Virus record (IMG/VR): IMGVR_UViG_3300033074_002003 | Length of the DNA: 64,000 nt | Source of the DNA: a virus | Strand: one strand, 5' to 3' | Shown here: positions 1 to 62,111 of the stretch, in pieces | Layout: each line of letters starts with the position of its first letter | Position numbering within the stretch: position 1 is the stretch's first letter | The notes under the pieces: generated by a model | What the model was told of the DNA's origin: nothing | Database searches by the model: none | The model's input: only the letters and a program-made list of their open reading frames with translations | Made by a program: the position numbers and the translations under genes

Positions 1-254
1 ACAAGGACGGTGACATCCCGTTCTGAGGGATATATAACGGTCTTAGGTCCCCGTGACGGTCGCCAATGCGGGGCTCGGACACCAGAGCGACGGCTGCGCA
101 CCCAGCTTGATCAGGTGCATCGCGGGAAGACGCTCAGGAAGGGCACGGGTGGTGCCGCCTGCAAGGGTCGAGCGTGTCAGGCTGGGTTCAACTCCCGGCT
201 TCCCGACAAGAGCGAGCTCGTGTAAGTGATCCCGAGAGGGGGTACTATCGAGTC

Positions 255-461
255 ATGAAGCAAATCGGATCTGTCAACGTGTCCGAGGTCCTGTGGGGTC
301 GCCTGCACGTCGCGGAGGAAGCGCGTCGACGCGACCTCGTCTTCATCAGACAGGTCACCGTTCCCAACGACACGCCCGGGAGTGACTCGAGCACGTTTGT
401 GCTCTATCACGGGTACGACGGGAAGCTCACGGTGTTCCAGGTCGACCCCAACGGTGAGTAG
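255..461 (+). CDS. Small early protein (69 aa)
   Basis: ATG at 255 preceded by gggggtactatcgagtc (TACTAT -10-like). ORF-track frame 174..461 trimmed to the promoter-proximal Met. Confidence 0.4.
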   Translation: MKQIGSVNVSEVLWGRLHVAEEARRRDLVFIRQVTVPNDTPGSDSSTFVLYHGYDGKLTVFQVDPNGE

Positions 462-596
462 GTACGGTGCCTCGCCGGGAGGCGCTCGGGCAGCTTCAGG
501 CCCGGGATGGGTGTGCCTACCTCAGTGAGACGGTGGGTCACCGCGAGGCACGAGATCGAGCGTGTAATCGAGTGAGTGGAAGGATATACTCTCATC

Positions 597-875
597 ATGA
601 GCAAAACCCTCGCAGACGAAATCGACCGGCTCGACCTCAACGCGAAGTCCATGGCCGAGATGGCGGAGCTCCTGGGATACACGGATCCCTGGGGACAGCT
701 CCAGTTCGACAACCGCGCGTACGCGAGTAACCTCATCAACTTCCTCAACGACAATCCCGACGCCTGCGCGGCGCTGGTCACGTGGGTGCTCGACCACGGG
801 TACACGCGTGAGGGGATGAGGCCGCAATCGGTCGAGGTCGAGAGCGACGAGGAAGAGGAAGAGGAGGACACGTGA
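597..875 (+). CDS. Small early protein (93 aa) with poly-acidic C-terminal tail (ESDEEEEEEDT)
   Basis: aggatatactctcatcATG cassette. ORF-track frame 576..875 trimmed to the internal Met after the promoter. Confidence 0.55.
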   Translation: MSKTLADEIDRLDLNAKSMAEMAELLGYTDPWGQLQFDNRAYASNLINFLNDNPDACAALVTWVLDHGYTREGMRPQSVEVESDEEEEEEDT

Positions 876-1082
876 AGATCACAGGTTCACTTCTCTGTGA
901 CTGTTGCAAGACGATTCAGGTGACGTGCCTGAAGAACCGGGACGCGAACGGGCAGTCGCTCTGCGACTCGTGCCTGCGCTCCCTCCGCAGCGGGTACCGT
1001 CCCGCGAAGTGGCGCTCGGAAGATCGTCAGAGCTCGTGACCCCGATCTCGATTCGAGATAGATTCATCTCAAGGAGCCAATC

Positions 1083-1295
1083 ATGAACATCGACGCCTTC
1101 TCCCCCGCCCGCGGTCACCTGTTCGTCAAGATGTCCGAGCTCGGTGCCGTCATCACCGCCCCCGGCACCCCCGAGGACGTGGCCGCACGCGAGCTCGTCG
1201 CCTTCGGTCGCGCCTACCGCATGCCCGGGAGCATCTCGTGCTACGCCCCGGAGCGTCGCATCGATCCCGCTCGCGAGAACCGCGTGACCCTCTGA
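1083..1295 (+). CDS. Small early protein (70 aa)
   Basis: ATG preceded by aaggagccaatc (SD-like) and gagatagattc (-10-like). Confidence 0.5.
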   Translation: MNIDAFSPARGHLFVKMSELGAVITAPGTPEDVAARELVAFGRAYRMPGSISCYAPERRIDPARENRVTL

Positions 1296-1299
1296 GCCC

Positions 1300-1327
1300 G
1301 GTGGGATAGAGTCTCATCATGGACAAC
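1300..1327 (+). promoter_or_regulatory. Extended -10 leaderless promoter (ggtgggatagagtctcatcATGgacaac)
   Basis: TGgGATAGAGT-type extended -10, then 7 nt, then ATG. Matches the repeated cassette. Confidence 0.6.
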
Positions 1328-1639
1328 ACCAACAAGTCAAGGCTTCAGATCTTCCTCGAGGAAACCTACGAGGGCCGCGTGATGGAGTACTCGGGCAGGG
1401 GAATGTACGGTAAGAAGTGCCTCGCGGTGAACCTCGAGTTCTCGCGTGACGAGGCCGCCCTGATCCTCGCGGCCGACATCATCGCGGCTTCCCACTCGAT
1501 CGCAGAGCGTGATTTGCACGAGATCGGTGATGCTGTGAAGAATACCCGGGTCGATAACCTCGGGAAGGGCAGCGTGTGTTACTGGCCCTGTGAGGCGTTC
1601 GTCGAGGACGAAGAGGAAGAGGATCTCGAGGACGCGTGA
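1319..1639 (+). CDS. Small early protein (106 aa), acidic C-terminus (EDEEEEDLEDA)
   Basis: Cassette promoter; starts MDNT. Confidence 0.6.
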   Translation: MDNTNKSRLQIFLEETYEGRVMEYSGRGMYGKKCLAVNLEFSRDEAALILAADIIAASHSIAERDLHEIGDAVKNTRVDNLGKGSVCYWPCEAFVEDEEEEDLEDA

Positions 1640-1653
1640 AATCGGCGGGGGAG

Positions 1654-1679
1654 GGTGGTAGAGTCTATCCATGGACAAC
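1654..1679 (+). promoter_or_regulatory. Extended -10 leaderless promoter (ggtggtagagtctatccATGgacaacaac)
   Basis: TGgTAGAGT then 8 nt then ATGGACAAC. Confidence 0.6.
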
Positions 1680-1985
1680 AACACTCCCTCCCCCATCGAA
1701 GTCGGCACGGGCGTCACCTTCCACTGCGGTAGCGACTGCTACCCCTACACGATCGTCGAGGTGAAGTCGCCCCGAAAGATCATCGTCCAGAGTGACAACT
1801 GGAAGCGGACGGACAAGAACGGGATCTCCGAGGACCAGACATACGAGTACATGCCCAACCCGAACGGCGAGCGGCGTGTCATCACCCTCCGGAAGAACGG
1901 GCGGTGGTGCGAGGTCGGGTCGAACGCCAGCTCGTGTCCCTACACTGTGGGCCACCGGCGGATGTACAGCGACCCCTGCAAGTAG
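1671..1985 (+). CDS. Small early protein (104 aa)
   Basis: Cassette promoter; starts MDNN. Confidence 0.6.
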   Translation: MDNNTPSPIEVGTGVTFHCGSDCYPYTIVEVKSPRKIIVQSDNWKRTDKNGISEDQTYEYMPNPNGERRVITLRKNGRWCEVGSNASSCPYTVGHRRMYSDPCK

Positions 1986-2024
1986 GCGCGTGACTCCGAT
2001 CACCGAGAAGGGTATAGTTCGATC

Positions 2025-2231
2025 ATGGACAACATCAACATCGGTGATCGCGTGACGCAGGCCCGTGCAATGGAGGGCATGCGCGAGAGTCAGAAGTACG
2101 TGGGCCTGCGCGGTGTGGTCCAGGAGATCTTCGTTGACGAGCGTGGCAACACCCACGCGTTCGTGAAGTGCGACCCTGGACAGTGGCTCGTGGAGTTCTG
2201 GGCGCCCGCCCACCTCTTCGACCGCGAATAG
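2025..2231 (+). CDS. Small early protein (68 aa), KOW/SH3-like (IGDRV...GVV)
   Basis: Cassette promoter gggtatagttcgatcATG. Followed by hairpin 2276-2305. Confidence 0.6.
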   Translation: MDNINIGDRVTQARAMEGMRESQKYVGLRGVVQEIFVDERGNTHAFVKCDPGQWLVEFWAPAHLFDRE

Positions 2232-2370
2232 TGCCTCGCGGGTGACCCGAGAGGGTCCCGGACATCGCGGGCAGGGTGTGACCCATTGGGTGAGGTGGGT
2301 CACACTCGGGTGGACGTCGGGGTCGAGTGCGTGAGTGTAGGTGAGTGAGAGGGATGGTATAGTCTTCATC

Positions 2371-2667
2371 ATGGACAAGGACATCTCTCTCTCCACCCTC
2401 GCCTCGGCTATCCTCTATGCACTTAACAACGTGCAACAGGAGGGCACCGGCTCCACACGCTTCCCGTCCTCCGAAGCCTACACCGAGTTCGACAACACCA
2501 TCGAGAGCTACGACCTCCGCCCACAGGTTAACGGTGATGGCACCGTCGACATCAACTTCTACCGCGAGGTGAACGACCTCCGCACGTGCAAAGACGGCGA
2601 TGTCTTCCGTAAGGTCTGGTGTGTCACCATGACCATGAAGGTCATCGAGGACAAGTTCGAGGAGTGA
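2371..2667 (+). CDS. Small early protein (98 aa)
   Basis: Cassette ggtatagtcttcatcATGgacaag. Trimmed from ORF 2341..2667. Confidence 0.55.
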   Translation: MDKDISLSTLASAILYALNNVQQEGTGSTRFPSSEAYTEFDNTIESYDLRPQVNGDGTVDINFYREVNDLRTCKDGDVFRKVWCVTMTMKVIEDKFEE

Positions 2668-2718
2668 CACGGGCGTGAGCGCGTGCTGGCCCGTGATCGA
2701 GATGTTATAGTCTCGATC

Positions 2719-2934
2719 ATGGACCGGCACACCAAAGACCAAATCGACAACTTCGCGTGGGACTGTGTCGTCGGCTCTGGGATGGGTCCCGAGTGGGCCG
2801 AGCTCGGTGTCGAGCCCGACCGTGACGTGCTACGTGCGCTGTCAGGCCTCCTCGGGCACCGGCTCACGGGTGAGGAACACAGCGCGTTCGTCGACGCGTG
2901 GAACAAGTGTCTCCAGGAGTGTGCCCACCCGTGA
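2719..2934 (+). CDS. Small early protein (71 aa)
   Basis: Cassette gatgttatagtctcgatcATGgaccgg. Trimmed from ORF 2683..2934. Confidence 0.55.
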   Translation: MDRHTKDQIDNFAWDCVVGSGMGPEWAELGVEPDRDVLRALSGLLGHRLTGEEHSAFVDAWNKCLQECAHP

Positions 2935-2965
2935 TAGGATGCGGGTGATGTGGTAGAGTTCGATC

Positions 2966-3355
2966 ATGGTGTGCTACCCGACGATCAGGTGCAACTGCGC
3001 AGAGCCGTTCTTGTACACACCCATCGGGTGGGACGCGGGTGACTACGTCTACATGCCGATGTGGAGCACTGTGATCGCCGCCCGCGCCCACCTGCGTCGA
3101 GACAGTATCATGACGCGTTGGGAGGCCACACGTGACGAGTTTCTCTGTCGCATCCCGAAAGGAGCGGCGCTGAGAGCACGCGATCTCTTCCCCGACGCAA
3201 AGGAGTTCTACACCATCCCCCGCGATCTCGGGACGATGGCTGAGGTGACACAGGCGGGTGCACTGCTTCGACTCATCGAGGCTCGCGACCCGTATATCAC
3301 GTGGGCAATTGCACACCTCGACGGGCGCGTACTCGTGCAAAACGTGAGAGGGTAG
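2966..3355 (+). CDS. Small early protein (129 aa)
   Basis: Cassette gtggtagagttcgatcATG. Confidence 0.55.
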   Translation: MVCYPTIRCNCAEPFLYTPIGWDAGDYVYMPMWSTVIAARAHLRRDSIMTRWEATRDEFLCRIPKGAALRARDLFPDAKEFYTIPRDLGTMAEVTQAGALLRLIEARDPYITWAIAHLDGRVLVQNVRG

Positions 3356-3396
3356 TTCCCGTGTAACGATGTGTGGGTGATGATATAGTCTCGATC

Positions 3397-3696
3397 ATGG
3401 ACAACAACCCCAAGTTCAAGTTCACCAGCAACCCCCACGCTTCGCTCAATGGCACGTCGTTCCACAACATCGAGCTACGTGCACCCATCGAGCGCCTCGT
3501 CGAGCTCTTCGGGGAACCCATCACGGGCTGCGACTCGAAGACCAAACACGAGTGGATCCTCGAGGGGTCCGACGGGTCAGTCGTCTCGCTCTACGACTAC
3601 AAATACGACGGCGCCCGTGAGGGGTACTGGCACGTGGGTGGGCGCACCGTTGGCGCGTGCAGGACCTTCGTTCTCTGGTTCTGCGACCAGGGATGA
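3397..3696 (+). CDS. Small early protein (99 aa)
   Basis: Cassette gatgatatagtctcgatcATGgacaacaac. Trimmed from ORF 3373..3696. Confidence 0.55.
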   Translation: MDNNPKFKFTSNPHASLNGTSFHNIELRAPIERLVELFGEPITGCDSKTKHEWILEGSDGSVVSLYDYKYDGAREGYWHVGGRTVGACRTFVLWFCDQG

Positions 3697-3738
3697 GAAT
3701 CTCGTGTTGATCCATGGGTAGGGTGTTATACTCTACCC

Positions 3739-4215
3739 ATGGACCCCACATACATCGACCGAGCGTACGTGTACGCACTGGACACGTGCTCGCAGGCGCT
3801 CGACCTCCTCACGGCGCACTGCTGGCACAGCATCGAACCCGACCAGCGGTGGTGGCTCGATGTGAAAGCGGGTGCTCTTCCCCCGTGGGCCAACGAAGAA
3901 GACGCCCGCTTCCGCGAGCGGTTGGAGATGTGGACGTGCGGCTTCTGTGAAGAGCTCGAGCACGGTACGTGCTTCTCGCTCGAGAGACAGTTCGCGAGCA
4001 TCGTTCGGTGTGCTGCCAGCATGGCAGACGAGAACAGGCACCTGATGCACAAGATGGCGAACGAGCTGATCGCCAGGTGCCACGCTCGGTTCGCCTGGGT
4101 GAAGAACGTGCTCGTCCCACGCGACAGGTTCGCCGGGACAGGACTCACCGAGGTGGCACAGATGAAGTCGCTGCGCCTCCAACTCGAGGGACCCGTGTCT
4201 CCCGAGAGAGAGTGA
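3739..4215 (+). CDS. Early protein (158 aa)
   Basis: Cassette gtgttatactctacccATGgacccc. Confidence 0.55.
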   Translation: MDPTYIDRAYVYALDTCSQALDLLTAHCWHSIEPDQRWWLDVKAGALPPWANEEDARFRERLEMWTCGFCEELEHGTCFSLERQFASIVRCAASMADENRHLMHKMANELIARCHARFAWVKNVLVPRDRFAGTGLTEVAQMKSLRLQLEGPVSPERE

Positions 4216-4239
4216 GATATAGTCTCGATCATGGACAAC
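4210..4239 (+). promoter_or_regulatory. Extended -10 leaderless promoter (gagtgagatatagtctcgatcATGgacaac)
   Basis: TGaGATATAGT then 7 nt then ATGGACAAC. Near-consensus copy. Confidence 0.6.
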
Positions 4240-4506
4240 ATTCCTGCCTCAGCCCGTCGCCCCATCGTCCGCATCATCGACGCGCTGACGAACGCAGAGT
4301 GCAAAATCACGTGCACGAGCGCGGAAGAGCTCGAGCTCGCCGCGAAGCTTCTAACGTCTGCTGGATGTATCCAGCACGAGCGCCGACTCCTGAACATCAT
4401 GCAGATGCTCAACATCGTGTCTGCCGAGATGAACGACATCCGTGAACAGCTCGTCGGCATCGCCCGTGCGGAGGCGAAGATGAAGGCCCGTCCCGAGGGC
4501 GCGTGA
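4231..4506 (+). CDS. Small early protein (91 aa)
   Basis: Consensus cassette; starts MDNI. Confidence 0.6.
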   Translation: MDNIPASARRPIVRIIDALTNAECKITCTSAEELELAAKLLTSAGCIQHERRLLNIMQMLNIVSAEMNDIREQLVGIARAEAKMKARPEGA

Positions 4507-4538
4507 CCCCGACTCGCGGGTGAGATAGAGTCTACTTC

Positions 4539-4904
4539 ATGGACAACATCATCGCCCTCGCGGAAAAGATCGTCAAGGCCATCCCGGGACTCCGGGACGA
4601 GACACAGGAGTTCTCGTGTGAGGACAACATTTCGTCGTTCGACGGGTTCTCTGTTTCGGAGAATCGGGACGACGAGTGGGACGTGTACCTCACTTACACT
4701 TCACCGTACGCGAAGGTCGAAGGGGCCCTCGAGGTGACCCTCGGCGAACCACACGAGTCGCACTGTCGTGGTGGGGACGACGCCTCTGACGTCTGGAAGA
4801 TCGACGGTGTCACGATCGTCCACTGTCGCGGGCGAATCGAACTCCACGGTGAGTTCGTGAAGGTCCCGAAGAGGGCCAAGAAGAAGTCCATGAAGAAGAA
4901 GTGA
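4539..4904 (+). CDS. Small early protein (121 aa), Lys-rich C-terminus (KRAKKKSMKKK)
   Basis: Cassette gtgagatagagtctacttcATGgacaac. Confidence 0.6.
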   Translation: MDNIIALAEKIVKAIPGLRDETQEFSCEDNISSFDGFSVSENRDDEWDVYLTYTSPYAKVEGALEVTLGEPHESHCRGGDDASDVWKIDGVTIVHCRGRIELHGEFVKVPKRAKKKSMKKK

Positions 4905-4945
4905 ACCCGCGTGTCGGTCTGTGGGTAGGGTGATACATTCTACCC

Positions 4946-5194
4946 ATGGACAACACCAAGACCGCCAAGTCGATCGCCTCTGTTGACGCGCAGCTCTCGA
5001 TGGCCGCCGATGCACTCTGTGATGCCCTCGAGACCCAGAACGACTTCGCCGACAACATCGAGGCCCTTCAGGACGTTACACCGTCCCAGTGGGCTGGGCA
5101 GGTTGCACGTGCGCAGGCCGAGCTCCGCGAGCGTGTCACGAAGCTGTACGAGGAGATGAACGACAAGCTCCTCGGTGGCGAGTTCGCCCAGTAA
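4946..5194 (+). CDS. Small early protein (82 aa)
   Basis: Cassette ggtgatacattctacccATGgacaac. Followed by the 91-nt structured element. Confidence 0.6.
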   Translation: MDNTKTAKSIASVDAQLSMAADALCDALETQNDFADNIEALQDVTPSQWAGQVARAQAELRERVTKLYEEMNDKLLGGEFAQ

Positions 5195-5348
5195 CTGATT
5201 CAGGAGGCACCTCACCCGTGCCTCGCAGTGACCCACGGAACAACTCTGTCCAGGTCGACAGGTAATTCCACCTTCGGCGTTCCGTGGGTCACTGCGAGGC
5301 ACGGGGATCGCGAGTGCAATGGCGTGTGCGTGAGGGTATACTCTACCC

Positions 5349-5678
5349 ATGGCCACACACCACTACTCCCAACTTCGTCCCTCCTCTCGTAAGATGATCC
5401 AGACCACCCTCTCAGAGAAGGGTGTTCCAACCAACTCAGATGGTGCACTCGACCGGACGGACTCGGATGCGTACAGTCACGCATTCTACATCATGGAGAA
5501 GTGTCCGAAGGGTCACAAGATCCTCGAGATCCGAAACGGGTCAGATGACGTATCGTTCTGGTACTACAAGACCGAAAAGGAGCTCGTGCACAAGTTCACC
5601 AGTGCACAGCACCACAACCAGTACGAGGGTGATGACGAGGACGGGGATTTCGAGGAGGAAGAGGGTGACGAGGACTGA
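5349..5678 (+). CDS. Small early protein (109 aa), acidic tail (DDEDGDFEEEEGDED)
   Basis: Cassette gagggtatactctacccATGgcc. Confidence 0.6.
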   Translation: MATHHYSQLRPSSRKMIQTTLSEKGVPTNSDGALDRTDSDAYSHAFYIMEKCPKGHKILEIRNGSDDVSFWYYKTEKELVHKFTSAQHHNQYEGDDEDGDFEEEEGDED

Positions 5679-5721
5679 GAAGTCTGTGTAGGTGGTGGTG
5701 AGGGGTGATATAGTCTTGATC

Positions 5722-6009
5722 ATGGACACACCCCTCAACATCGCCATCGAGAAGCTCAAGGCCAAGGTCGCGACCCTCGAGTTGCTCAAACCCTTCCCGG
5801 GTGCATACGACGAACTCCTCGACCACATCGAGGTCACCTGGGGACCCATGTTGGAGGACGAGGGTGACATGGCGGAGGACTTCGTCTTCGAGCTGGGTCT
5901 CGACGTGACGGACGGCATCCTACAGTTCGAGATCGAGATGGACCACTCGTGGTGGTGTTGGGACCCTATCACGAAGACTTGGTTCAATCCCGAAGATGCG
6001 AGGGTCTGA
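5722..6009 (+). CDS. Small early protein (95 aa)
   Basis: Cassette ggtgatatagtcttgatcATGgacaca. Trimmed from ORF 5692..6009. Confidence 0.55.
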   Translation: MDTPLNIAIEKLKAKVATLELLKPFPGAYDELLDHIEVTWGPMLEDEGDMAEDFVFELGLDVTDGILQFEIEMDHSWWCWDPITKTWFNPEDARV

Positions 6010-6225
6010 GAGGTACGCGTGACACGCACCGGACAGGATGGTAATGTTCTGTCCGGTGCACGACACCGAAGATTCGGGGACAGCACTCGGCGTGCAGAGA
6101 CCCGCTGGCGCCTGCGTAAGTCAACCGCGATTTTGGATTCAGCTCCATCATTCAAGGCACTCGCAGGATGGGGTCTCCCGGGAGGTTCGAATCCTCCTGT
6201 CTCCACCCGTGTATGACTGCTGACT
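6010..6225 (+). ncRNA. Promoter-less structured non-coding gap: 10-bp hairpin (6027-6058) plus tRNA-like 3' module (T-arm GGAGG-TTCGAAT-CCTCC, acceptor TGTCTCC, ACC at 6181-6207)
   Basis: This is the only >200 bp interval in the early array without a promoter cassette. It carries a canonical T-loop TTCGAAT and an ACC end. GGGGACA at 6076 is a possible 5' acceptor partner (7 bp with one G.U), which would give a 132-nt element. Confidence 0.35.
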
Positions 6226-6243
6226 GTGAGGTATACTCTACCC

Positions 6244-6480
6244 ATGGACAACAACATCTCTAAGTGGAAGATCCCTTCGTGGATGATCGCTGGCGTGCGG
6301 TGTAAGGTCGTCCGTGGGCGAAAGGTGAAGATTGGTGAAGTTGGAACTATCATCGACACCTTCACCACGGGGAACGGACACAAAGCGCGTGTCCATTTGG
6401 ATTCGACGGGTCCCATCCAGCGCGTGAACCCGCAGCTGTCCTACACGCGTATCGCAGTCCAGAACCTAGAACCTATCTAA
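6244..6480 (+). CDS. Small early protein (78 aa), KOW-like
   Basis: Cassette gaggtatactctacccATGgacaacaac. Confidence 0.6.
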   Translation: MDNNISKWKIPSWMIAGVRCKVVRGRKVKIGEVGTIIDTFTTGNGHKARVHLDSTGPIQRVNPQLSYTRIAVQNLEPI

Positions 6481-6513
6481 CACTTCACTGAACGCGTGAA
6501 TGGCCGTGGGTGG

Positions 6514-6539
6514 GGTGATATACTCTATCCATGGACAAC
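6514..6539 (+). promoter_or_regulatory. Extended -10 leaderless promoter (ggtgatatactctatccATGgacaacacc)
   Basis: TGaTATACT then 8 nt then ATGGACAAC. Confidence 0.6.
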
Positions 6540-6770
6540 ACCTGCCCCGAACTTCCGCGAAGTCCCGCTATGCCCCCATGGCTCGACGGCCTCTGTGCCA
6601 TCTGGCTCGAGTGGGATGAGGGCGTCGGACACTGCCGGGACCTCGAGCTCGAGGAGCTCTGTGCGTGCCTCGACGCCGACTGGTCGATCGACTGTGGTGA
6701 GTTCTCGGGCCACCGGCAGTGGGACGACGTGATGTCACGGTGCTCGGATCGGATCGCCTACACGAGCTGA
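6531..6770 (+). CDS. Small early protein (79 aa), Cys-rich
   Basis: Cassette promoter; starts MDNT. Confidence 0.55.
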   Translation: MDNTCPELPRSPAMPPWLDGLCAIWLEWDEGVGHCRDLELEELCACLDADWSIDCGEFSGHRQWDDVMSRCSDRIAYTS

Positions 6771-6811
6771 GGGCACGTGATGGTCTGTGGCCAGTGAGGT
6801 ATCATCTATCC

Positions 6812-7135
6812 ATGGACCAAATCGCCATCGACTCAAACTACGCCATCCTCGCGAAGGAAGTGGTCGCCAAGGAGTTTCCCGCGGCAGTCACCGCCATCGC
6901 CAACCACGGCAACTGCGAGGGATGCAACCTCTTTGACGCGGGTGAGGTCTTCTACCTCTTCACCAACCCGGGAGGCGGCAAGGACCTTCACGTCGTCGTC
7001 GACCAGGACGCCGAGGTCTACAGCTGGGACGGTGACAGCTGGAATGAGTTGGAAAACTGGATGGCTGATGGCGAGACACGGTCGTGGCTTCGCCGCCACG
7101 CCAAGAAGCACGGGTTGGTCTACACCCAAGAGTAG
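6812..7135 (+). CDS. Small early protein (107 aa)
   Basis: Cassette gaggtatcatctatccATGgaccaaatc. Trimmed from ORF 6719..7135. Confidence 0.55.
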   Translation: MDQIAIDSNYAILAKEVVAKEFPAAVTAIANHGNCEGCNLFDAGEVFYLFTNPGGGKDLHVVVDQDAEVYSWDGDSWNELENWMADGETRSWLRRHAKKHGLVYTQE

Positions 7136-7193
7136 GTCTGGGTCGCGGGTCCCATCTCGTGTATGGATGGGACCCGCGTGGTAGAGTTTACCC

Positions 7194-7442
7194 ATGGACC
7201 AAATCTACAAGCTCGCACGCAAGATCGCCCGTTGCCTCTACAGCGACTCGCACGTGCCCGTTGCGGAGTCGCTCCCCAAGATCTCCGCTGGACTCGAGAG
7301 CGACATGTCGGTGCCAGGCTCGCGCCTCCCTGACGACGGTGAGGTCGAGTTCCTCGTGTACGGGGGCGATGAGGGTTCGACCCCCGAGGAGGTGATGGCA
7401 AAGTGGCCGAAGACCTACGAAGCCATCGGGTCGTTCTTCTGA
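7194..7442 (+). CDS. Small early protein (82 aa)
   Basis: Cassette ggtagagtttacccATGgaccaaatc. Confidence 0.55.
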   Translation: MDQIYKLARKIARCLYSDSHVPVAESLPKISAGLESDMSVPGSRLPDDGEVEFLVYGGDEGSTPEEVMAKWPKTYEAIGSFF

Positions 7443-7481
7443 GCGCGTGAATGCAGGTGGGCTTCGTGGTAGAGTCTTCTC

Positions 7482-7967
7482 ATGGCAAAGAAGACCACGA
7501 AGCCCAAGGCTCCCAAGTTCCTAGCGGGCGACCGCGTGAAACTCCTCCCGTTCGAGGGCCAACCCGAGGAGTTGGGTGTCGTCATCGAGTACGAGGGAAA
7601 CAACTTGTACTGTGTTAGCGTCGACCGTCGCTTCCGCACGAAGGAAGACGATGGCCTCAGAGAGGTCGACGGTGACCAGCTCGAGGCTTCTTCCGAGCCG
7701 CTCGAGCCCGTCAAAACCAAGATCACGACCCTCTTCCGCATCTCTGCGCGGGCCGCACAGAAGCTCTTCAAGAAGGAATTCAAAGAAGCGATGGTCGATC
7801 TCGACGACGTCGATCCGCGTGACATCGACTGGTTCATCGACTCGAAGGGAAACCTCTGGACGAACGACGCCCTCGACGACCACGGGTACACGTTCTTCAA
7901 CCTCGCGACGCCGACTTTGTCGTTCGACCGTTCGGAGGTCAAGGTCCTCGACGACCTCAACGACTAA
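7482..7967 (+). CDS. Early protein (161 aa), Lys-rich N-terminus, KOW-like AGDRVKLL
   Basis: Cassette ggtagagtcttctcATG. Confidence 0.6.
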   Translation: MAKKTTKPKAPKFLAGDRVKLLPFEGQPEELGVVIEYEGNNLYCVSVDRRFRTKEDDGLREVDGDQLEASSEPLEPVKTKITTLFRISARAAQKLFKKEFKEAMVDLDDVDPRDIDWFIDSKGNLWTNDALDDHGYTFFNLATPTLSFDRSEVKVLDDLND

Positions 7968-8007
7968 GCGCGTGAACCCGAGCGGGTGAGGGTGTAGAGT
8001 CTACTTC

Positions 8008-8268
8008 ATGGACACCACACTCACCGTTGCCATCGCCAAGTTCCCCTCGACCTTCGGCCTGCGCGCCTTCCCGGGCGACACGTTCCGCGTGAGCCCCTCG
8101 GCCTCGTACATGACCGACGCGTACCGCTGGGACCGTGAGACGAACACGACAGTGCGGGTCACCCCCGTCCCGATGCTCTACACCGAGCGCCTCTGCGAGG
8201 ACGGTGTGTGGCGCGACTTCGCGAAGGGGACCACCGAGGAGCTCCTCCAGAACGTCGTGAAGCTCTGA
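8008..8268 (+). CDS. Small early protein (86 aa)
   Basis: Cassette gtgtagagtctacttcATGgacacc. Confidence 0.55.
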   Translation: MDTTLTVAIAKFPSTFGLRAFPGDTFRVSPSASYMTDAYRWDRETNTTVRVTPVPMLYTERLCEDGVWRDFAKGTTEELLQNVVKL

Positions 8269-8291
8269 TCTCAGGGAGGTAGAGTCTCACT

Positions 8292-8579
8292 ATGGTCCAC
8301 ATCTTCTACCGTACCCTCGACGCCATCTCAGAGGCCCCTGTCGCCCTCACGGTGCCGACTGACGGGCTTCGAAAAGAAGACTACGAGCTTGTTCACGTGC
8401 TCGATAACTCGGCTCCGCACCTCGAGGCGATCTACCGGATGATGAACGTCATCTCGGGGAACGAGCTCCCTGTGCGGCTCGGCATCCGAACTATGACCGT
8501 GGGTGACGTCATTGTCGACGAGGACGGGACCGTGTGGTTTGCGGGCGCGTCTGACTGGGAAGAGACGAGCTGGTTCTGA
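8292..8579 (+). CDS. Small early protein (95 aa)
   Basis: Cassette gaggtagagtctcactATG. Followed by conserved terminator hairpin 8587-8625. Confidence 0.5.
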   Translation: MVHIFYRTLDAISEAPVALTVPTDGLRKEDYELVHVLDNSAPHLEAIYRMMNVISGNELPVRLGIRTMTVGDVIVDEDGTVWFAGASDWEETSWF

Positions 8580-8586
8580 CCTCGCC

Positions 8587-8625
8587 GTGACCCGCTCGGG
8601 CCCCCACGGGCCCGAGATGGGTTCC
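8587..8625 (+). terminator. Conserved GC hairpin gtgacccgCTCGGGCCCccacGGGCCCGAGatgggttcc (copy 1)
   Basis: 9-bp stem with 4-nt loop, 8 nt after the stop at 8579. 36/39 nt identical to the copy at 9588-9626. Confidence 0.55.
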
Positions 8626-8801
8626 CATACCACCCACACGTCCCGAGTGACCCCAGCCTCCCAGAAGGGATACAACTCACCTCATGGAACTCATCTACCT
8701 CGCGGTCGGTCTCGTCGTGGTCGCCCTCCCGGGCGCGGTCATCTCCCTCGCCGCCTTCGGCCTCGAGTGACAGTGTGGGCGGGAGAGGATAGGATCTGAA
8801 C

Positions 8802-8999
8802 ATGGTCAAGAGCAACGTCTCACGCCCCGTGAAGCGCTACATCGTGCGGTTCTTTCACCAGGACATGGGCGGGTGCGAGTGCCCGTTCGAGGCCGATGAA
8901 CATGACGATGCCCGCGAGCGCAGGGACGAGATCAACGCGGGACAGTACTCTCGCATGAGCGACGCTAGCATCGTGCGTGTCTACGCGAAGGGGAAGTGA
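8802..8999 (+). CDS. Small early protein (65 aa)
   Basis: Cassette ggataggatctgaacATG. Confidence 0.5.
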   Translation: MVKSNVSRPVKRYIVRFFHQDMGGCECPFEADEHDDARERRDEINAGQYSRMSDASIVRVYAKGK

Positions 9000-9011
9000 T
9001 AGAGTCTACCC

Positions 9012-9197
9012 ATGGAAGAAATCGCTAGCAAGCCGCACGAGCACGCCTGGGGTTACGACAAGTGGGAGACCCTCTGCCACAACGGCCGTCGCATCGTGCA
9101 CCAGTGTAACGACTGCCTCGCCGTACGGGTCACCTTTCGCACCCACAACGCGGGCGACAAGGTGGTCGTCATCGACCCGCCCTACGTGAAGGACTGA
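9012..9197 (+). CDS. Small early protein (61 aa), His/Cys-rich (possible Zn binding)
   Basis: Cassette gtgatagagtctacccATGgaagaa. Confidence 0.5.
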   Translation: MEEIASKPHEHAWGYDKWETLCHNGRRIVHQCNDCLAVRVTFRTHNAGDKVVVIDPPYVKD

Positions 9198-9220
9198 ACG
9201 CGAGGGTGTAGAGTCTGGTT

Positions 9221-9574
9221 ATGGACAACAACATCGCCATCGACTTCGCGCGCCTCACCCCCGCCCAGTCCGCGCTGCTCGCCCGCATCCGCGTGTCCCT
9301 CGCCACGAACTCCCTCGCGGTGGAGCGGGCCATCACGGTCCTCTACGCGAACCAGACCACCGACGAGCGGGCGGTCTCCGCGACCAAGCACCAGAACGCC
9401 AAGGGGTTCAACTCCGCCGACGCGAGTCGGCTCTCGTACTACGCCCGCTGGGTCGGGTCGGGTCGCCACCTCACGGGTCACCACCTCGACCGTGCGCGTG
9501 CCACGGTCGGCAAGTACTGGCGCCAGCTCCTGCGCGCGGCGGTTGCGAAGGCGCAGGTGGCACAGGGCGCCTGA
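9221..9574 (+). CDS. Small early protein (117 aa)
   Basis: Cassette ggtgtagagtctggttATGgacaacaac. Followed by hairpin copy 2. Confidence 0.55.
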   Translation: MDNNIAIDFARLTPAQSALLARIRVSLATNSLAVERAITVLYANQTTDERAVSATKHQNAKGFNSADASRLSYYARWVGSGRHLTGHHLDRARATVGKYWRQLLRAAVAKAQVAQGA

Positions 9575-9587
9575 CCCGGGCCTCGCG

Positions 9588-9626
9588 GTGACCCGCTCGG
9601 GCCCTCACGGGCCCGGGATGGGTTCC
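9588..9626 (+). terminator. Conserved GC hairpin gtgacccgCTCGGGCCCtcacGGGCCCGGGatgggttcc (copy 2)
   Basis: Same element as 8587-8625, 14 nt after the stop at 9574. Confidence 0.55.
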
Positions 9627-9707
9627 ACCACCTCGGCGGGCTCGACCTCTCTGCGAGGCACGAGCCGAGAACGTGAATCCCCGTGCGCGGGAGGATAGAG
9701 TACTCTC

Positions 9708-10439
9708 ATGCCGCTCATCACCCAGAAGCATGGTTTCGATGTCGCGACCCAGCGCTACACCCGGAAGGGTGACCCCATCACGGAGCACGAGGGCCGGGTG
9801 GTCGCCCGGTACGACCTGCACCTCACCCGCAACCACTCCGACACGCTGGACTACACCGACTTCCAGACCGCCCAGGTCGTGAAGATCGTCGTGAAGCTCG
9901 ACGCTCCCCTCGCGGATCCCTACCACTACTACTCCAACCCGCTCTACCGGAAGGGCGACCCCTTCGTGGAGATCGAGGTGTTCTCCTCCCAGTACACGTG
10001 GCGATGCCCGAGCGACTTCGTGAGTGCCACGGTGGACGCCTCCCCCGAGCTCATCGCGGAGCACGAGGCCTTCCTCGCCGGTCGGCGAGCGGAGATGGCC
10101 GCTGAGGCCGCTCGGGTGGCCCAGGAGAAGCTCGAGGCCGAGAAGAAGGAGGCTGCCAAGCGAGCGGTCGCGGAGGCCCGAGAGGCCGCTCGGAAGGCTC
10201 AGGCGGAGGCCGTCCTCGCTGGGATGCCCGAGAAGGGAACCCGCGTCACGGTGTGCGGGATGAAGTATCCCGAGCCTGTGGTCGGCACGGTGTTCTGGAA
10301 GGGAGTCACGAAGTACCGCGGGAAGTGGGCCGCGAAGATCGGCGTGAAGCGCAACCCGAAGGACCGGGACGAGGACCCGATGTGGGTGGGGGACGGCGAG
10401 TACACCGTGGAGCGGGTCGTGAAGTTGGGCGCCGCGTGA
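9708..10439 (+). CDS. Early protein (243 aa) with Ala/Glu/Lys-rich coiled-coil segment
   Basis: Cassette ggaggatagagtactctcATG. Largest gene of the array. Confidence 0.6.
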   Translation: MPLITQKHGFDVATQRYTRKGDPITEHEGRVVARYDLHLTRNHSDTLDYTDFQTAQVVKIVVKLDAPLADPYHYYSNPLYRKGDPFVEIEVFSSQYTWRCPSDFVSATVDASPELIAEHEAFLAGRRAEMAAEAARVAQEKLEAEKKEAAKRAVAEAREAARKAQAEAVLAGMPEKGTRVTVCGMKYPEPVVGTVFWKGVTKYRGKWAAKIGVKRNPKDRDEDPMWVGDGEYTVERVVKLGAA

Positions 10440-10453
10440 AATCTGTGCGGGTG

Positions 10454-10479
10454 GGTGGTAGAGTCTACCCATGGACAAC
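10454..10479 (+). promoter_or_regulatory. Extended -10 leaderless promoter (ggtggtagagtctacccATGgacaacaac)
   Basis: Same cassette; last copy of the early array. Confidence 0.6.
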
Positions 10480-10686
10480 AACGTACCGAAGTACGAACTC
10501 GCCGTGGGCGCCCGTGTCGTCGTCTACAAGGGAACCGGACAGATTGTCCCGCGCGGGTCGACTGGCGTCATCCTTCGCTTCCGACCCACGGGCTCCGCGA
10601 TCGATGACCTCGTGTGTGTTGACTTCGACAACGATGGGTGCGGACACTGGGTCCACCGGTCCCACCTCGCGATCATCGCCGACTGA
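10471..10686 (+). CDS. Small early protein (71 aa), KOW/SH3-like (VGARVVVYKGTG)
   Basis: Consensus cassette; starts MDNN. Confidence 0.6.
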   Translation: MDNNVPKYELAVGARVVVYKGTGQIVPRGSTGVILRFRPTGSAIDDLVCVDFDNDGCGHWVHRSHLAIIAD

Positions 10687-10689
10687 CAC

Positions 10690-10800
10690 GCACGTGACGG
10701 GGCGGCCGGGGCCTGGTGGCTCTAACGGGGCTGCCGCCCCGGGGGCCCCCTGACACGCTGTAACGGGGCCCCCCGGCCCCCCGGCCCCGTGCATTCCTCC
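10690..10800 (+). terminator. Cluster of GC-only hairpins (ggggcggccggggcc ... ggccccccggcccc) closing the early array
   Basis: Several G/C-run inverted repeats directly after the last early gene. No T-tract. Confidence 0.4.
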
Positions 10801-10918
10801 TGAGGGGCCCTCTGGGGGCCACAGGGCGCTAACTGCCCGCGCAAATCTCGGGACAAATTTCTCGAGCGGTTGTCACTCCTCACTAGACCACAATCCCAAA
10901 AATTTCTCGGGACAAATT

Positions 10919-11380
10919 TCACTTCGATCGCCTTGAAGCTTCAGCACCCAAGCGTCCCCACTCGCGAAACCTCGAGCGTTCCTCTTCTGTCATGTCCTCT
11001 GCTCTCCGAGAATGCTGCGATTTCTTGGGCGTGAACCGCCCGTGTTCGCCCCAAGCGATTGGGTCAGGCAGCTCGTGCGAGACGTACATGAGGAGCCTCT
11101 GAAGGGTCTCGAGGGTGTTATCAGATTTCATGCGATTCGCGCGGTGACTTATGACAGCGATGTTGCCCGGAATGTAACCCTTGGAGTTATCGATTCGATC
11201 GATCGAGGGCGCGCGCTCGGGATCTGTGATGTCTAGCTCGACACCGAGAATGGGACAGAATTGAGGAATGACGATGTCTTCGGGCAAGATTGAGAAATCG
11301 CGTCCCGTCCTCCTCACCCTTCGTTTTATCTGGTGATACAGTCTGACGTTGTGTGGCTGAATCTTGCGTCGCTTCTGCAT
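10919..11380 (-). CDS. HNH homing endonuclease (HNH_3-like)
   Basis: CPILGVELD...DRIDNSKGYIPGNIAVISHRANRMK is the classic HNH motif. GC content is lower than the flanks. Confidence 0.8.
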   Translation of the reverse strand: MQKRRKIQPHNVRLYHQIKRRVRRTGRDFSILPEDIVIPQFCPILGVELDITDPERAPSIDRIDNSKGYIPGNIAVISHRANRMKSDNTLETLQRLLMYVSHELPDPIAWGEHGRFTPKKSQHSRRAEDMTEEERSRFREWGRLGAEASRRSK

Positions 11381-11443
11381 GATTGCATCATACTAGCGAT
11401 GTAACGGATGTTCGTGTCAGCCAGTGTTCACATACTTAGTGGG

Positions 11444-19993: not shown

Positions 19994-20072
19994 CCCTCCG
20001 TGACACACGTGAAAATTGCCGGGTGATGTGTTATGTTTCCACCATGCCCATGGTCCTCATCTCTGGTGCCAA

Positions 20073-36804: not shown

Positions 36805-36821
36805 CCTATTTAGCTCTCGTG
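36805..36821 (+). promoter_or_regulatory. Late-type leaderless promoter CCTATTTAGCTCTC-GTG
   Basis: Matches the late motif. Confidence 0.45.
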
Positions 36822-37715
36822 TCGGAAAAGTTGACGCTACGAGAGCTGCTGGGTACTGACAGCGCGAATCTGGTGACGGAGCGCGAGTTTCGCGACCAGA
36901 ATTTTTGCAGGTATGAGAGACTGGTGATCCGCTCTCTGCGTCGCGCGGGCATCATCGGAAACATTCGCAGTGCGAACTGCAACGACTCGAACGCCCCTGA
37001 CGCTGACATGGTGGTGGGCGACGAAATCTACTACGTGGAGGTGAAAGCCTCTGATCGCGCTCGAATGGGATCCGCGTCAGTCGGATATTCCTATCTCGAG
37101 CGCGAGTTCTATTCGACTGGTCTCAACGTCGAGCTGAGCGAACTCGTTGTGTCGCTACTTGAGACTTCGTCGTCGACGCTCAAGAAATCGCTAGATCGCC
37201 TCGTGCGAGCGGTCGCGGTCGGATCGCCTGACAGGAAGCGCGTCCTCAGGGGCTTTCCGATGAGCGGATTCACCGCATCAGCGTGGTCAGGCGCGCGCGA
37301 AGCGGGACTGTTGCAACCGCTTAACTCGCAGTTCGAGGGAAGCATAGACATCATCGGTTCGCACTACGCCCGCAAAGGCGTTTCATACATCCAGGTGGGC
37401 GGCCGCGGCCTGTTCTACCTCTCTTCGAACCCGGCGAACCTACCCGTTCCGAAACTAGAGGGTACAGTCGTCCTAGAGGTTACGGTGAGCAAAGCCGGCG
37501 ATATTCCGGGTCGCGAGACGTCTCGTGCGGCGATCCGCGTGCACCCGCGCATCGAAATTTCGGGAGAATCTCCCTACACGCTCGACGATCCCGCGAGCGT
37601 CATTGCGCTCATTGCCGCGACGGAAAATGTAAATCCGCCGCAGGGGGCTGTACAATCCCCCAATGGGATCTCGAATTCTCGCGCAGGGCGTCCTGGAGCA
37701 ACTGTCAGTTCGTGA
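36819..37715 (+). CDS. PD-(D/E)XK nuclease-fold protein (tentative)
   Basis: DADMVVGDEIYYVEVKA (D...E-V-K). Confidence 0.35.
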   Translation: MSEKLTLRELLGTDSANLVTEREFRDQNFCRYERLVIRSLRRAGIIGNIRSANCNDSNAPDADMVVGDEIYYVEVKASDRARMGSASVGYSYLEREFYSTGLNVELSELVVSLLETSSSTLKKSLDRLVRAVAVGSPDRKRVLRGFPMSGFTASAWSGAREAGLLQPLNSQFEGSIDIIGSHYARKGVSYIQVGGRGLFYLSSNPANLPVPKLEGTVVLEVTVSKAGDIPGRETSRAAIRVHPRIEISGESPYTLDDPASVIALIAATENVNPPQGAVQSPNGISNSRAGRPGATVSS

Positions 37716-62036: not shown

Positions 62037-62111
62037 GCGCCCGTGACGAGAATCGAACTCGCACATACCGGAACATAACCTCCGGAGTTCTTCCTTTGAA
62101 CTACACGGACT
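62037..62111 (-). tRNA. tRNA gene (anticodon uncertain; 8-nt anticodon loop GGUUAUGU in my fold; 3' end ...G-CA, CCA not fully encoded)
   Basis: The reverse complement folds with acceptor GTCCGTG/CACGGGC, D stem GTTC/GAAC, anticodon stem CCGGA/TCCGG, variable TATGT, T-arm GCGAG-TTCGATT-CTCGT. Confidence 0.5.

Follow-up and report, generated by a model that had tools for sequence, protein, structure and literature searches.

We describe here an array of small genes in a 64,000-nt stretch of viral DNA (IMG/VR record IMGVR_UViG_3300033074_002003, referred to below as the window), in which a repeated cassette resembling a bacterial promoter is fused directly to the start codon of one gene after another. 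Positions 1-11,000 of the window contain 30 small open reading frames (ORFs) of 28-243 aa, all of them on the + strand and mostly separated by gaps of 12-59 nt. Alignment of the 50 nt preceding each ATG showed that 28 of these ORFs share the element, and the + strand between 219 and 10,479 carries 27 high-scoring cassettes plus one degenerate copy (Table 1). A preliminary description of this DNA had listed about 28 cassettes; they lie where it placed them, all on the + strand, with the qualification that 27 score highly and the 28th (8647-8692) is degenerate, at -24 bits. The repeated cassette is confirmed as an observation.

Each cassette consists, in order, of a -35-like box (CGTGWA), a variable and G-rich spacer of 17 bp, a -10 box (TAKAST), 6 or 7 nt, and the ATG. 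The -10 hexamer follows the form TANNNT (T1 and A2 in 28/28, T6 in 27/28), and the GTG of the -35 box lies exactly 17 bp upstream of it in 27/28. Written as GTG(A/T)(A/C)N, the -35 box agrees with the T, G and A positions of TTGACA, the first T being replaced by an invariant G. The 3' end of the spacer is (T/G)-G-(G/A) across the 28 aligned cassettes; an extended -10 box of the TGn type had been proposed, and its G is mostly there (26/28), while the complete TG is found in only 13/28. The nucleotides between the -10 box and the ATG are usually CTAYCC or CTCGATC, amounting to 6 nt in 20/28 and 7 nt in 8/28 cassettes, with a pyrimidine at position -2 (27/28) and a C at position -1 (26/28). Conservation continues into the coding sequence (G+4 in 25/28, A+5 in 21/28, C+6 in 22/28, A+10 in 23/28, C+12 in 24/28), giving the consensus ATG GAC AAC A-C and, in most cassettes, the start context ATGGACAAC. 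Among the products of the 28 cassettes, 18 start with MD, 11 with MDN and two with MDQ, so that the earlier statement that more than half begin MDN, MDNN or MDQ is true of MD (64%) and not of MDN and MDQ taken together (46%). The cassette thus measures about 45-50 bp, around twice the 25-28 bp first given, because the -35-like box, which had been overlooked, belongs to it.

This layout, with two hexamers 17 bp apart, a TANNNT -10 box and (T)G just upstream of it, looks typical of promoters of the sigma-70 family. Spacer sequences are free to differ and conservation is confined to specific positions, i.e., the GTG at -35, T1, A2 and T6 at -10 and the 17-bp distance, which points to a sigma-70 promoter and not to a plain repeat. 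A promoter-only matrix, from which the ATG columns were excluded, scores the 27 array sites at 17-38 bits (11.5-35 bits with leave-one-out), and first-order Markov shuffles of the 64-kb window give a chance level of 1.4 sites at >=10 bits. The strict 45-nt pattern has 9 matches vs 0.00 expected, and the general repeat finder independently returned a 17-copy family of 50 nt each. With 27 copies in 10.5 kb, the promoter density is about one per 375 bp. A promoter and terminator scan based on the E. coli consensus recovered only two of the 27 cassettes and is uninformative for this DNA.

The high copy number, together with sub-families of cassettes that have identical 20-30-nt cores (repeat families D4-D8), could also suggest a selfish repeat without an expression function, such as a miniature transposable element or the product of recent tandem duplication and gene conversion. 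We consider this extremely improbable, because the copies keep to one strand and to the register of the start codon, they combine diverse spacers with fixed functional positions, and the design is kept in two other contigs (L008 and L014, introduced below) without nucleotide similarity. Examination of the cassettes for terminal inverted repeats, target-site duplications or a transposase domain revealed none of them. An archaeal-virus reading was rejected as well: there is no TATA-like box at -27, the boxes stand at -35 and -10, and AGGAGG sites are used.

The geometry of the cassettes suggests that transcription should start on the A of the ATG and that the mRNAs should be leaderless. This A lies 6 nt (20 cassettes) or 7 nt (8 cassettes) past the -10 box, is preceded by pyrimidines and is the only nearby purine, so the polymerase would be expected to start there. 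A predicted leader of 0-1 nt would leave no room for a Shine-Dalgarno sequence between transcript start and ATG; the promoter abuts the start codon, and the absence of Shine-Dalgarno sequences noted before holds. Genuine AGGAGG sites are present elsewhere in the window (35440, 45621, 25887 and 1083), which suggests that the host system is able to use a Shine-Dalgarno sequence. Leaderless initiation has been shown to require an ATG codon (PMC8459731), GUG and UUG being poor starts when there is no leader. All 27 cassette genes use ATG, and the sole GTG start of the array (gene 872) belongs to a gene without a cassette.

An accessible start codon and a CA-rich downstream sequence are also known to raise leaderless translation (PMC8459731, PMC9031893). 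In the cassette genes, the first 36 nt fold with a mean of -3.25 kcal/mol vs -8.56 kcal/mol for 679 interior windows (p = 1e-13), and are rich in C and A (ATGGACAACAAC...), with 15% G and 36% A compared to 32% and 20% in gene interiors. The start motif in the coding sequence is GACAACAAC, and the shift in composition is not limited to it: in codons 4-8, beyond GAC-AAC, G is lost and A and C are gained regardless of the amino acid, and third positions in codons 2-6 are C in 71% and G in 13%, vs 48% and 36% in gene bodies. A shift at synonymous positions that reaches past GAC-AAC argues for selection at the RNA level and not at the protein level. The 30 array proteins, compared mutually, have no significant similarity and are not paralogs; three have PHROG homologs, whose alignments begin no earlier than residue 9-22; and the number of AAC codons varies among orthologs in relatives (e.g., MDNN vs MDN). 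For these reasons the common MD(N) start is a property of the cassette. The opposite view, that MD(N) is selected in the protein as a stability tag, for retention of the initiator Met, or as a targeting or packaging signal, can draw on the frequency of Asp2 (18/27 vs 7.8% in gene bodies) and Asn3 (11/27 vs 3.2%); GAC and AAC are also the genome-preferred codons, hence these two alone are undecisive. Considering the change from G to C at third positions, the loss of G in codons 4-8, the variable number of Asn codons, the PHROG homologs without the prefix, and L014, which keeps an A-rich, unstructured 5' end and starts its proteins with ME, MK, MA or MD, we regard selection on the protein as quite unlikely. 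The proposal of the preliminary description that selection does not act on the proteins is thus borne out in silico by the lack of paralogy, the third-position shift and the unstructured 5' ends. Inter-cassette recombination and pairing with the G-rich spacer may account for part of the MDN conservation.

Relatives of the window were found by one metagenome-contig pattern scan and two protein searches; gene 9708 was among the sequences used to find them. They fall into R1 (L004, L005, L007, L009 and L010, with 75-85% nucleotide identity to the window), R2 (L011 and L095) and R3 (L097, nearly identical to the window). Two further contigs have no nucleotide similarity to the window, namely L008, with 7 cassettes, and L014, which shares only a 34%-identical homolog of gene 9708. 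The single pattern scan yielded four further phage variants; its matches in L002, L003 and L006 were discarded as chance matches, having no ORF behind the match or a GC content of 40%. Two cassette patterns searched against the IMG/VR contigs gave no match. R2 and R3 have 27-33 such cassettes, which occupy the coding strand exclusively, and independent pipeline gene calls on the related contigs begin at the cassette ATGs. In R2 the array reaches a further ~10 kb upstream, past the homolog of the gene that comes first in the window, and has 13 more promoter matches there, so that the window shows only part of the array.

In L014 the design is retained with a different consensus, GTG(C/T)AAA, 17 nt, TA-N4 and NN(G/A)ACC. 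Searched without requiring an ATG, this pattern has 27 sites, every one of them on the same strand, with ATG immediately after it in 24/27. The remaining three (2459, 9972 and 12065) read AT...AAGGAGG...ATG, i.e., a Shine-Dalgarno leader of 13-17 nt beginning at the same A. Comparable leader variants occur in R2 (TAGAGT-aatctc-AAGGAGCAAGGAACATG; L095 at 4671 and 5073) and at 1059 in the window, and in the relatives the 5' end of the leader is either the Shine-Dalgarno sequence itself (AAGGAGCAAGGAAC-ATG) or begins with AT (ATCAAGGAGGTTCC-ATG). Since these variants begin at the same position, they are indirect evidence for the predicted start, and they indicate that the phages use Shine-Dalgarno sequences whenever a leader exists; they also suggest that leaderless and leadered forms are easily interconverted. 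The 5' ends of the L014 genes are unstructured (-3.34 vs -9.83 kcal/mol, p = 4e-13) and A-rich (39% vs 20%), and their products start with ME, MK, MA or MD. An unstructured 5' end without MDN suggests that MDN is a local solution of the window's lineage.

Comparison of the window with its relatives suggests that the cassettes also serve as sites of gene exchange. The window and R2 have 19 of the 30 array genes in common, with 11 unique to each (a difference of about 37% in gene content), and the order of genes 8802 and 9012 is swapped. Mapping at the nucleotide level placed the breakpoints of six events within cassette cores, at TAGAGTCTCATCATGG, at ATGGACAA, in the spacer or at AGCGCGTGAA. 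In the cassette at 1283-1327, the left half equals that of one R2/R3 cassette and the right half that of the following one, with the crossover in their common TAGAGTCTCATCATGG; the 140-aa gene that R2 and R3 have between these two cassettes is removed by the join. The loss or gain of genes 2025 and 2371 has its junction at ATGGACAA, the 8802/9012 swap has one junction inside the spacer, and the loss or gain of gene 7482 has its junction in the AGCGCGTGAA common to the two flanking -35 boxes. In R2, the promoter of gene 2025 is joined to a homolog of gene 2719. Furthermore, the cassettes of 6/19 ortholog pairs are unrelated (<=62% identity), with coding sequences 60-92% identical; a seventh low-identity pair (gene 5722) reflects a start miscalled in R2 and was not counted. 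We infer that recombination caused these breakpoints.

Table 1. Features of the small-gene array and cassette-type sites elsewhere in the window; "7 nt" marks the -10 to ATG distance, and R1, R2 and L numbers are the relatives described in the text.
Feature	Position	Strand	Score (bits)	Gene; product	Remarks
Cassette 1	219..263	+	17.3	255-461; 68 aa, MKQ	CGTGTA-17-TACTAT-6-ATG; identical in L005 and L011
Cassette	561..605	+	30.7	597-875; 92 aa	CGTGTA-17-TATACT-6-ATG
Gene without cassette	872-1039	+			GTG start overlaps stop of upstream gene 597-875
Leader variant	1035..1085	+	12.1	1083-1295	CGTGAC-17-TAGATT; 11-nt leader starting AAGGAG; same in L097
Cassette	1283..1327	+	32.2	1319-1639; MDNTN	Hybrid of two R2/R3 cassettes
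Cassette	1635..1679	+	33.6	1671-1985; MDNNT	Upstream TGA stop within -35 box
Cassette	1989..2033	+	21.8	2025-2231; MDNIN	
Cassette, 7 nt	2334..2379	+	33.3	2371-2667; MDKDI	Gene missing in R1, R2
Cassette, 7 nt	2682..2727	+		2719-2934; MDRHT	
Cassette	2930..2974	+	27.1	2966-3355; MVCYP	Gene missing in R1, R2
Cassette, 7 nt	3360..3405	+	33.2	3397-3696; MDNNP	
Cassette	3703..3747	+		3739-4215; MDPTY	Hairpin across -10, -26.7 kcal/mol
Cassette, 7 nt	4194..4239	+	25.7	4231-4506; MDNIP	Promoter within 3' end of upstream gene; gap 15 nt
Cassette, 7 nt	4502..4547	+		4539-4904; MDNII	Gene missing in R2
Cassette	4910..4954	+	32.9	4946-5194; MDNTK	Hairpin over -10, -27.9 kcal/mol
Inverted repeat, perfect, 27 bp	5215..5305	+			Within 154-nt intergenic gap; -75.3 kcal/mol, z = -9.2
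Cassette	5313..5357	+	26.5	5349-5678; MATHH	
Cassette, 7 nt	5685..5730	+	27.4	5722-6009; MDTPL	
Promoter without ORF	6018..6215	+	15.6		CGTGAC-17-TAATGT (6018-6047); ~160 nt structured RNA behind
Cassette	6208..6252	+	26.3	6244-6480; MDNNI	
Cassette	6495..6539	+	37.8	6531-6770; MDNTC	Array maximum
Cassette	6776..6820	+	27.1	6812-7135; MDQIA	
Cassette	7158..7202	+	25.2	7194-7442; MDQIY	
Cassette	7446..7490	+	32.9	7482-7967; 161 aa, MAKKT	Gene missing in R2
Cassette, 7 nt	7971..8016	+	32.0	8008-8268; MDTTL	
Cassette	8256..8300	+	26.4	8292-8579; MVHIF	Promoter within 3' end of upstream gene
Degenerate cassette	8647..8692	+	-24.3	8684-8770; 28 aa, hydrophobic	TACAAC; -35 offset by 1; doubtful member
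Cassette	8766..8810	+		8802-8999; MVKSN	Order vs gene 9012 swapped in R2
Cassette	8976..9020	+	29.0	9012-9197; MEEIA	Promoter wholly inside upstream ORF
Cassette	9185..9229	+	27.4	9221-9574; MDNNI	PHROG 21015, no assigned function
Cassette	9672..9716	+	26.5	9708-10439; 243 aa, MPLIT	
Last cassette	10435..10479	+	28.9	10471-10686; MDNNV	
Structured element, copy 1	464..552	+			Outer stem GCCTCGC / GCGAGGC plus inner hairpin
Structured element, copy 2	8580..8650	+			z = -3.7
Structured element, copy 3	9577..9665	+			Found by repeat finding and folding
Cassette-type promoter	20008..20058 (site 20032)	+	12.9		CGTGAA-17-TATGTT-6-ATGCCC; conserved in L011 at 20368
Cassette-type site	25426	-	9.2		
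Cassette-type site	29588		13.8		
Weak cassette	33695..33739 (site 33719)	+	8.2		CGTGTA-17-TATATT-6-ATGGACCCC
Cassette-type site	35401		9.0		With leader and AGGAGG

Within the array, coding and regulatory sequences overlap to such an extent that the packing is extreme. In 23/29 cases the gap between genes is <=59 nt and made up of the cassette alone. Five promoters lie within the 3' end of the upstream ORF, and in five other cassettes the upstream TGA stop forms part of the GTGA of the -35 box (1636-1641, 2931-2936, 4503-4508, 8767-8772 and 10436-10441); at 8997-8999 the upstream stop adjoins the -10 box (TGA-TAGAGT). Canonical terminators, as scanned for with an E. coli consensus, are not enriched, their counts being at the level of shuffled sequence. 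Transcripts would then read through into following genes. Combined with internal ORFs that have no ribosome-binding site, read-through would mean that each gene is translated only from the mRNA that starts at its own AUG, and this in turn would explain the presence of one promoter per ~375 bp.

Some of the cassettes are also able to form structure in such read-through RNA. Strong hairpins across the -10 box are found in 5-6 of the 27 cassettes (genes 2719, 3739, 4946, 5349, 6531 and 6812) and most cassettes are without them. In these hairpins the discriminator and ATGG(AC) form a stem with the G-rich spacer, as for gene 3739, where CCATGGGTAG and CTACCCATGG flank the -10 box; in the cassette of gene 2719, a 20-nt inverted repeat (2683-2702/2711-2730; -35.8 kcal/mol) does so. 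Native pairs of spacer and start exceed chimeric pairs in stability (p = 0.007 by permutation). One could envisage long polycistronic RNAs, made from a few promoters, in which the element is either processed to give 5'-AUG ends or bound by ribosomes as a signal of a non-Shine-Dalgarno kind, considering that most gaps have no terminators, that spacers contain GGAG-like tetramers and that about one third of the cassettes allow pairing between spacer and start region. We find this very unlikely, as the conserved positions, two hexamers (-35 and -10) with a 17-bp spacing, are those that a sigma factor reads in double-stranded DNA, the distance of the GGAG-like tetramers to the ATG (12-20 nt) is outside the usual range, and the real Shine-Dalgarno sequences (window 1059, L014 and L095) are placed past the predicted start. 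In addition, the 60-nt read-through RNA folds no more strongly than gene interiors (-17.4 vs -18.0 kcal/mol), so that the idea of globally more structured RNA at the cassettes was dropped in favor of hairpins in a subset.

The same dyads bear on a further possibility, namely that a phage regulator binds the repeats, at sites that overlap or replace promoters. The stoperators of Cluster A mycobacteriophages, which are one-directional sites, offer an analogy, and the array likewise has many copies in one orientation between genes, with a partial dyad at the -10 box in 5-6 cassettes. However, most copies have no dyad, conservation tracks the two hexamers of a promoter and the distance between them, the neighborhood of the array showed no repressor-like gene, and the fixed distance of 6-7 nt to the ATG would be left unexplained, which makes regulator sites a highly improbable explanation.

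The long gaps of the array are all taken by structured elements (464-552, 2232-2340, 5215-5305, 8580-8650 and 9577-9665). Three of them are copies of one element, with an inner hairpin CCTCGCSGTGACCCGCTCGGGCCC-N4-GGGCCCGRGATGGGT within the outer GCCTCGC / GCGAGGC stem. No U-tract is found in the three copies or in the perfect 27-bp inverted repeat; these elements could be terminators without a U-tail, RNA-stability elements or small RNAs, and the 27-bp inverted repeat is a candidate terminator or RNA-stabilizing hairpin that divides the array. Matches of miRNA hairpins to this repeat, which we consider spurious, were all that Rfam returned, at gathering as well as E-value thresholds, and the tRNA-like elements described next had none.

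Behind the promoter without ORF at 6018-6215, the RNA has a 7-bp acceptor-like stem at its ends (GGGGACA...TGTCTCC-ACC) and a canonical T-arm (GGAGG-TTCGAAT-CCTCC; T-arm-like 3' end GGAGGTTCGAATCCTCC), and looks like a tRNA carrying an insertion of ~75 nt. It was not recognized by ARAGORN (intron and tmRNA modes) or Rfam; the element is kept in L097 and missing from R2. A second T-arm-like sequence, GGCTGGGTTCAACTCCCGGCT, with flanks GCGGGAAG...CTTCCCGAC, lies just upstream of the first cassette (100-215, + strand) and is 92% conserved in R2 (L011 2566-2806); it gave no tRNA call and cannot be aligned with the 6055-6215 element. At its other end, the array finishes in extremely GC-rich GGGGCC-type repeats with nested hairpins (10687-10920), followed by two direct copies of TCTCGGGACAAATTTC and by a convergent 153-aa ORF (10919-11380, - strand) without Pfam match, in place of which R2 has a different, 69-aa gene.

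The array proteins themselves are mostly orphans. Pfam gave nothing significant for the 30 proteins, and PHROG assigned three to families, all without assigned function, leaving 27/30 with no Pfam or PHROG family. The region is a hyperplastic block of small orphan genes, probably of the early class; the strong promoters, host takeover and reservoir of anti-defence factors proposed in the preliminary description are conjectural. Several of the proteins are strongly acidic (597-875, 1319-1639, 5349-5678, 5722-6009 and 6531-6770), e.g., with 22 Asp/Glu vs 6 Lys/Arg, and some have poly-Glu C-termini; they resemble DNA-mimic anti-restriction proteins, a likeness with no homology support.

Outside the array, cassette-type sites score 8.2-13.8 bits (Table 1). 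Three outside copies had been proposed, of which the one at 33719 is cassette-like; those at 14058 (-11.8 bits) and 59746 (-0.7 bits) are just a -10-like hexamer near an ATG, and the sites at 20032, 29588, 35401 and 25426 (- strand) are better copies. The site at 59746 had been assigned to a glycosyltransferase-sigma operon, and no sigma-factor domain was found in the ORFs of that region. A different motif, CTATTTAG or CTATTTAA, stands at 36806 (+), 41902 (-), 53473 (-) and 49581 (-), 5-9 nt before the likely starts 36819, 41897, 53466 and 49571 of genes that are long and structural or late-looking, and CATACTTAG near 11430 and 12180 was grouped with it. These sites could be a second, late promoter class with likewise very short leaders; their count alone is no higher than chance, and only their positions are striking.

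The window is part of a large uncultured tailed phage that resembles huge phages. Among 50,697 deposited phage records, Megablast found no nucleotide match to the array, and the identical sequence is present in a Logan assembly. Its structural proteins are 29-45% identical to those of Flavobacterium and Microcystis jumbo phages and of huge metagenomic phages, the baseplate-wedge-like protein being 29% identical to the Flavobacterium and Microcystis jumbo phage proteins. An 863-aa protein (30690-33281, + strand) combines major-vault-protein (MVP) shoulder and repeat domains with an SPFH/Band 7 domain; its identity to proteins of the huge metagenomic phages LR756500, LR756501 and LR756503 (462-735 kb) is 44-45%. 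The matches of array proteins in tblastn are to phages of Proteobacteria at 32-44%, from which no host was inferred. Genes related to tRNA and translation are found at 28242-29543 (+), 37663-38883 (+), 62037-62110 (-), 62101-62730 (-) and 63086-63538 (-); they comprise a CCA-adding enzyme, a T4-type RNA ligase, a tRNA to which ARAGORN assigned no anticodon, an HD_4 (RelA/SpoT-type hydrolase) protein and a PTH2 peptidyl-tRNA hydrolase.

Taken together, we consider it likely that the array is composed of autonomous, leaderless promoter-gene modules that double as recombination units. Each gene would be a module of its own, with a sigma-70-type promoter fused straight to the ORF, and RNA polymerase would start on the A of the ATG, producing an mRNA without leader. 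Ribosomes would load at the 5'-terminal AUG without a Shine-Dalgarno sequence, aided by the unstructured, A/C-rich and G-poor first 10-12 codons, a stretch for which the window's lineage would have settled on ATG GAC AAC (AAC). Genes inside read-through RNA would have no ribosome-binding site, hence every gene would need its own promoter, and the conserved cores (the -35 box, and the -10 box through ATGGAC) would provide short homologies for the insertion, deletion, replacement and reordering of genes. The polymerase or sigma factor used, the leaderless translation and the early timing are what we infer from these features.

Several points weigh against this explanation. The transcription start, the promoter strength and the timing are read from the DNA, and the -35 box has GTG where the canonical one has TTG, in 27/28 cassettes and in L014, so that the sigma factor recognizing it could be unusual or supplied by the phage. 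About half of the G-rich spacers hold GGAG, GAGG or AGGA at 12-20 nt before the ATG, which could be weakly active on read-through RNA. Strong hairpins are present in just 6/29 intergenic gaps, i.e., the six long gaps, so most transcripts would traverse several genes, which is apparently wasteful. Breakpoints at conserved sequence are partly expected, because the ends of homology are hard to place elsewhere. Finally, the nearest genomic CCA-adding enzymes are those of Polyangia and Treponema, at <=43% identity, and no host was inferred from them.

The uniform -35 box also raises the alternative that the promoters serve a phage-specific sigma factor or RNA polymerase, delivered with the virion or made early, in which case the leaderless start could still hold. 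Host -35 boxes are usually less uniform than the GTG found here, which recurs in L014 (GTGYAAA), and some of the huge phages that the window resembles have their own polymerases (AR9 and phiKZ; PMC5312081, PMC8244752). On the other hand, the layout is typical of the sigma-70 family, no polymerase or sigma-factor domain was identified in those window ORFs that were scanned, and early promoters of the phiKZ type consist of one AT-rich motif, give leaders of 30-40 nt and produce no leaderless transcripts. We therefore judge phage-specific transcription to be unlikely.

If modules of this kind exist, they would provide a natural one-promoter-per-gene leaderless architecture and an example of how a genome is organized when ribosomes are recruited by the 5' end of the mRNA and not by a Shine-Dalgarno sequence. 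The idea that regulatory cassettes act as recombination modules would extend from T4-type coliphages to unrelated, GC-rich uncultured phages. The cassette, as a compact, sequence-defined part of ~47 bp, could be used for leaderless expression, and its consensus is a cheap metagenome marker for fast-evolving early orphan genes, among them candidate host-takeover and anti-defence genes. Only tentatively, and as something we hold to be rather doubtful, we also propose that this lineage merges transcription and translation initiation into a single event for a whole class of genes by means of a portable unit. In that case a gene would need no expression signal besides these ~47 bp (promoter, 5'-AUG and CA-rich, unstructured enhancer ATGGACAAC), which would also be the recombination site for plugging in, removing or moving any ORF. 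A further possibility is that the phage biases its host toward leaderless translation via initiation factors, (p)ppGpp or the ribosomes, and the translation-related gene cluster might bear on this, with the nearby HD_4 hydrolase, PTH2, CCA-adding enzyme and RNA ligase as candidates; the leaderless design would then itself be a host-shutoff strategy.

Among known systems, the promoter-early stem-loop (PeSL) cassettes of T4-type phages work in a similar way (PMC2839356, PMC4122927). Like the array, they consist of sigma-70-like early promoters in hyperplastic regions of small orphan genes, the preceding gene has its stop codon inside or next to the cassette, and the insertions, deletions and replacements that distinguish close relatives are joined in them. 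In PeSL a stem-loop (terminator or attenuator) is integral to each cassette (PMC2839356); here one across the -10 box is convincing in 5-6 of 27. The formation of encapsidated mini-circles is a further trait of PeSL. In contrast to PeSL, the promoter described here is fused to the ATG, with no Shine-Dalgarno sequence, no 5' untranslated region and no AT-rich upstream element, its -35 box is GTGA and not TTGACA, and the phage is GC-rich and without nucleotide similarity to deposited phages. As the Shine-Dalgarno sequence, the leader and the AT-rich region are lacking and the stem-loop is mostly absent, the cassettes are PeSL-like in their working and are not members of PeSL.

Leaderless genes have been described both in phages and in bacteria. 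In the Thermus phage phiYS40, likewise a large phage and a myovirus, most genes of one temporal class are leaderless with non-canonical initiation; this class is middle/late and infection shifts the IF2/IF3 balance (PMC3594737). The array described here looks early instead and its promoters have a -35 box, no factor altering translation was identified for it, and a one-promoter-per-gene array with a common start sequence is not described for phiYS40 in the accessible text of PMC3594737. In Deinococcus-Thermus, TANNNT is found 6-7 bp before about one third of Deinococcus ORFs (PMC12340547), and host leaderless genes in general (PMC12340547; Actinobacteria, PMC3898074; survey, PMC3160421) have the identical geometry of TANNNT, 6/7 nt and start, without Shine-Dalgarno sequence. 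Those genes are scattered, with a weak or absent -35 box, whereas the window has 27 in tandem with a common -35 box, discriminator and first 3-4 codons, and these turn over as modules. The determinants of leaderless translation, i.e., a 5'-AUG, zero leader, an accessible start and a CA-rich downstream sequence (PMC8459731; Martin-Farmer and Janssen 1999, cited in PMC9031893), are all paralleled here, with a leader predicted at 0-1 nt. These rules were derived in Caulobacter and with E. coli reporters, and a fixed GAC-AAC motif is not among them.

In the searchable literature we found no description of a leaderless early-gene cassette array for any phage. About two dozen early genes, small and driven by strong promoters, are densely packed in the host-takeover module of SPO1, and Cluster K mycobacteriophages have a conserved short sequence at many translation starts; both are Shine-Dalgarno-led, and to our knowledge neither fuses the promoter to the start codon. 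Overall, leaderless genes at a -10 box, leaderless classes of phage genes, and promoter cassettes that mediate gene shuffling are each known singly, and what we did not find in the searchable literature is their combination, with at least 27 tandem promoter-ATG fusions, a common motif in the 5' coding sequence, gene shuffling, and a design shared by divergent uncultured phages.

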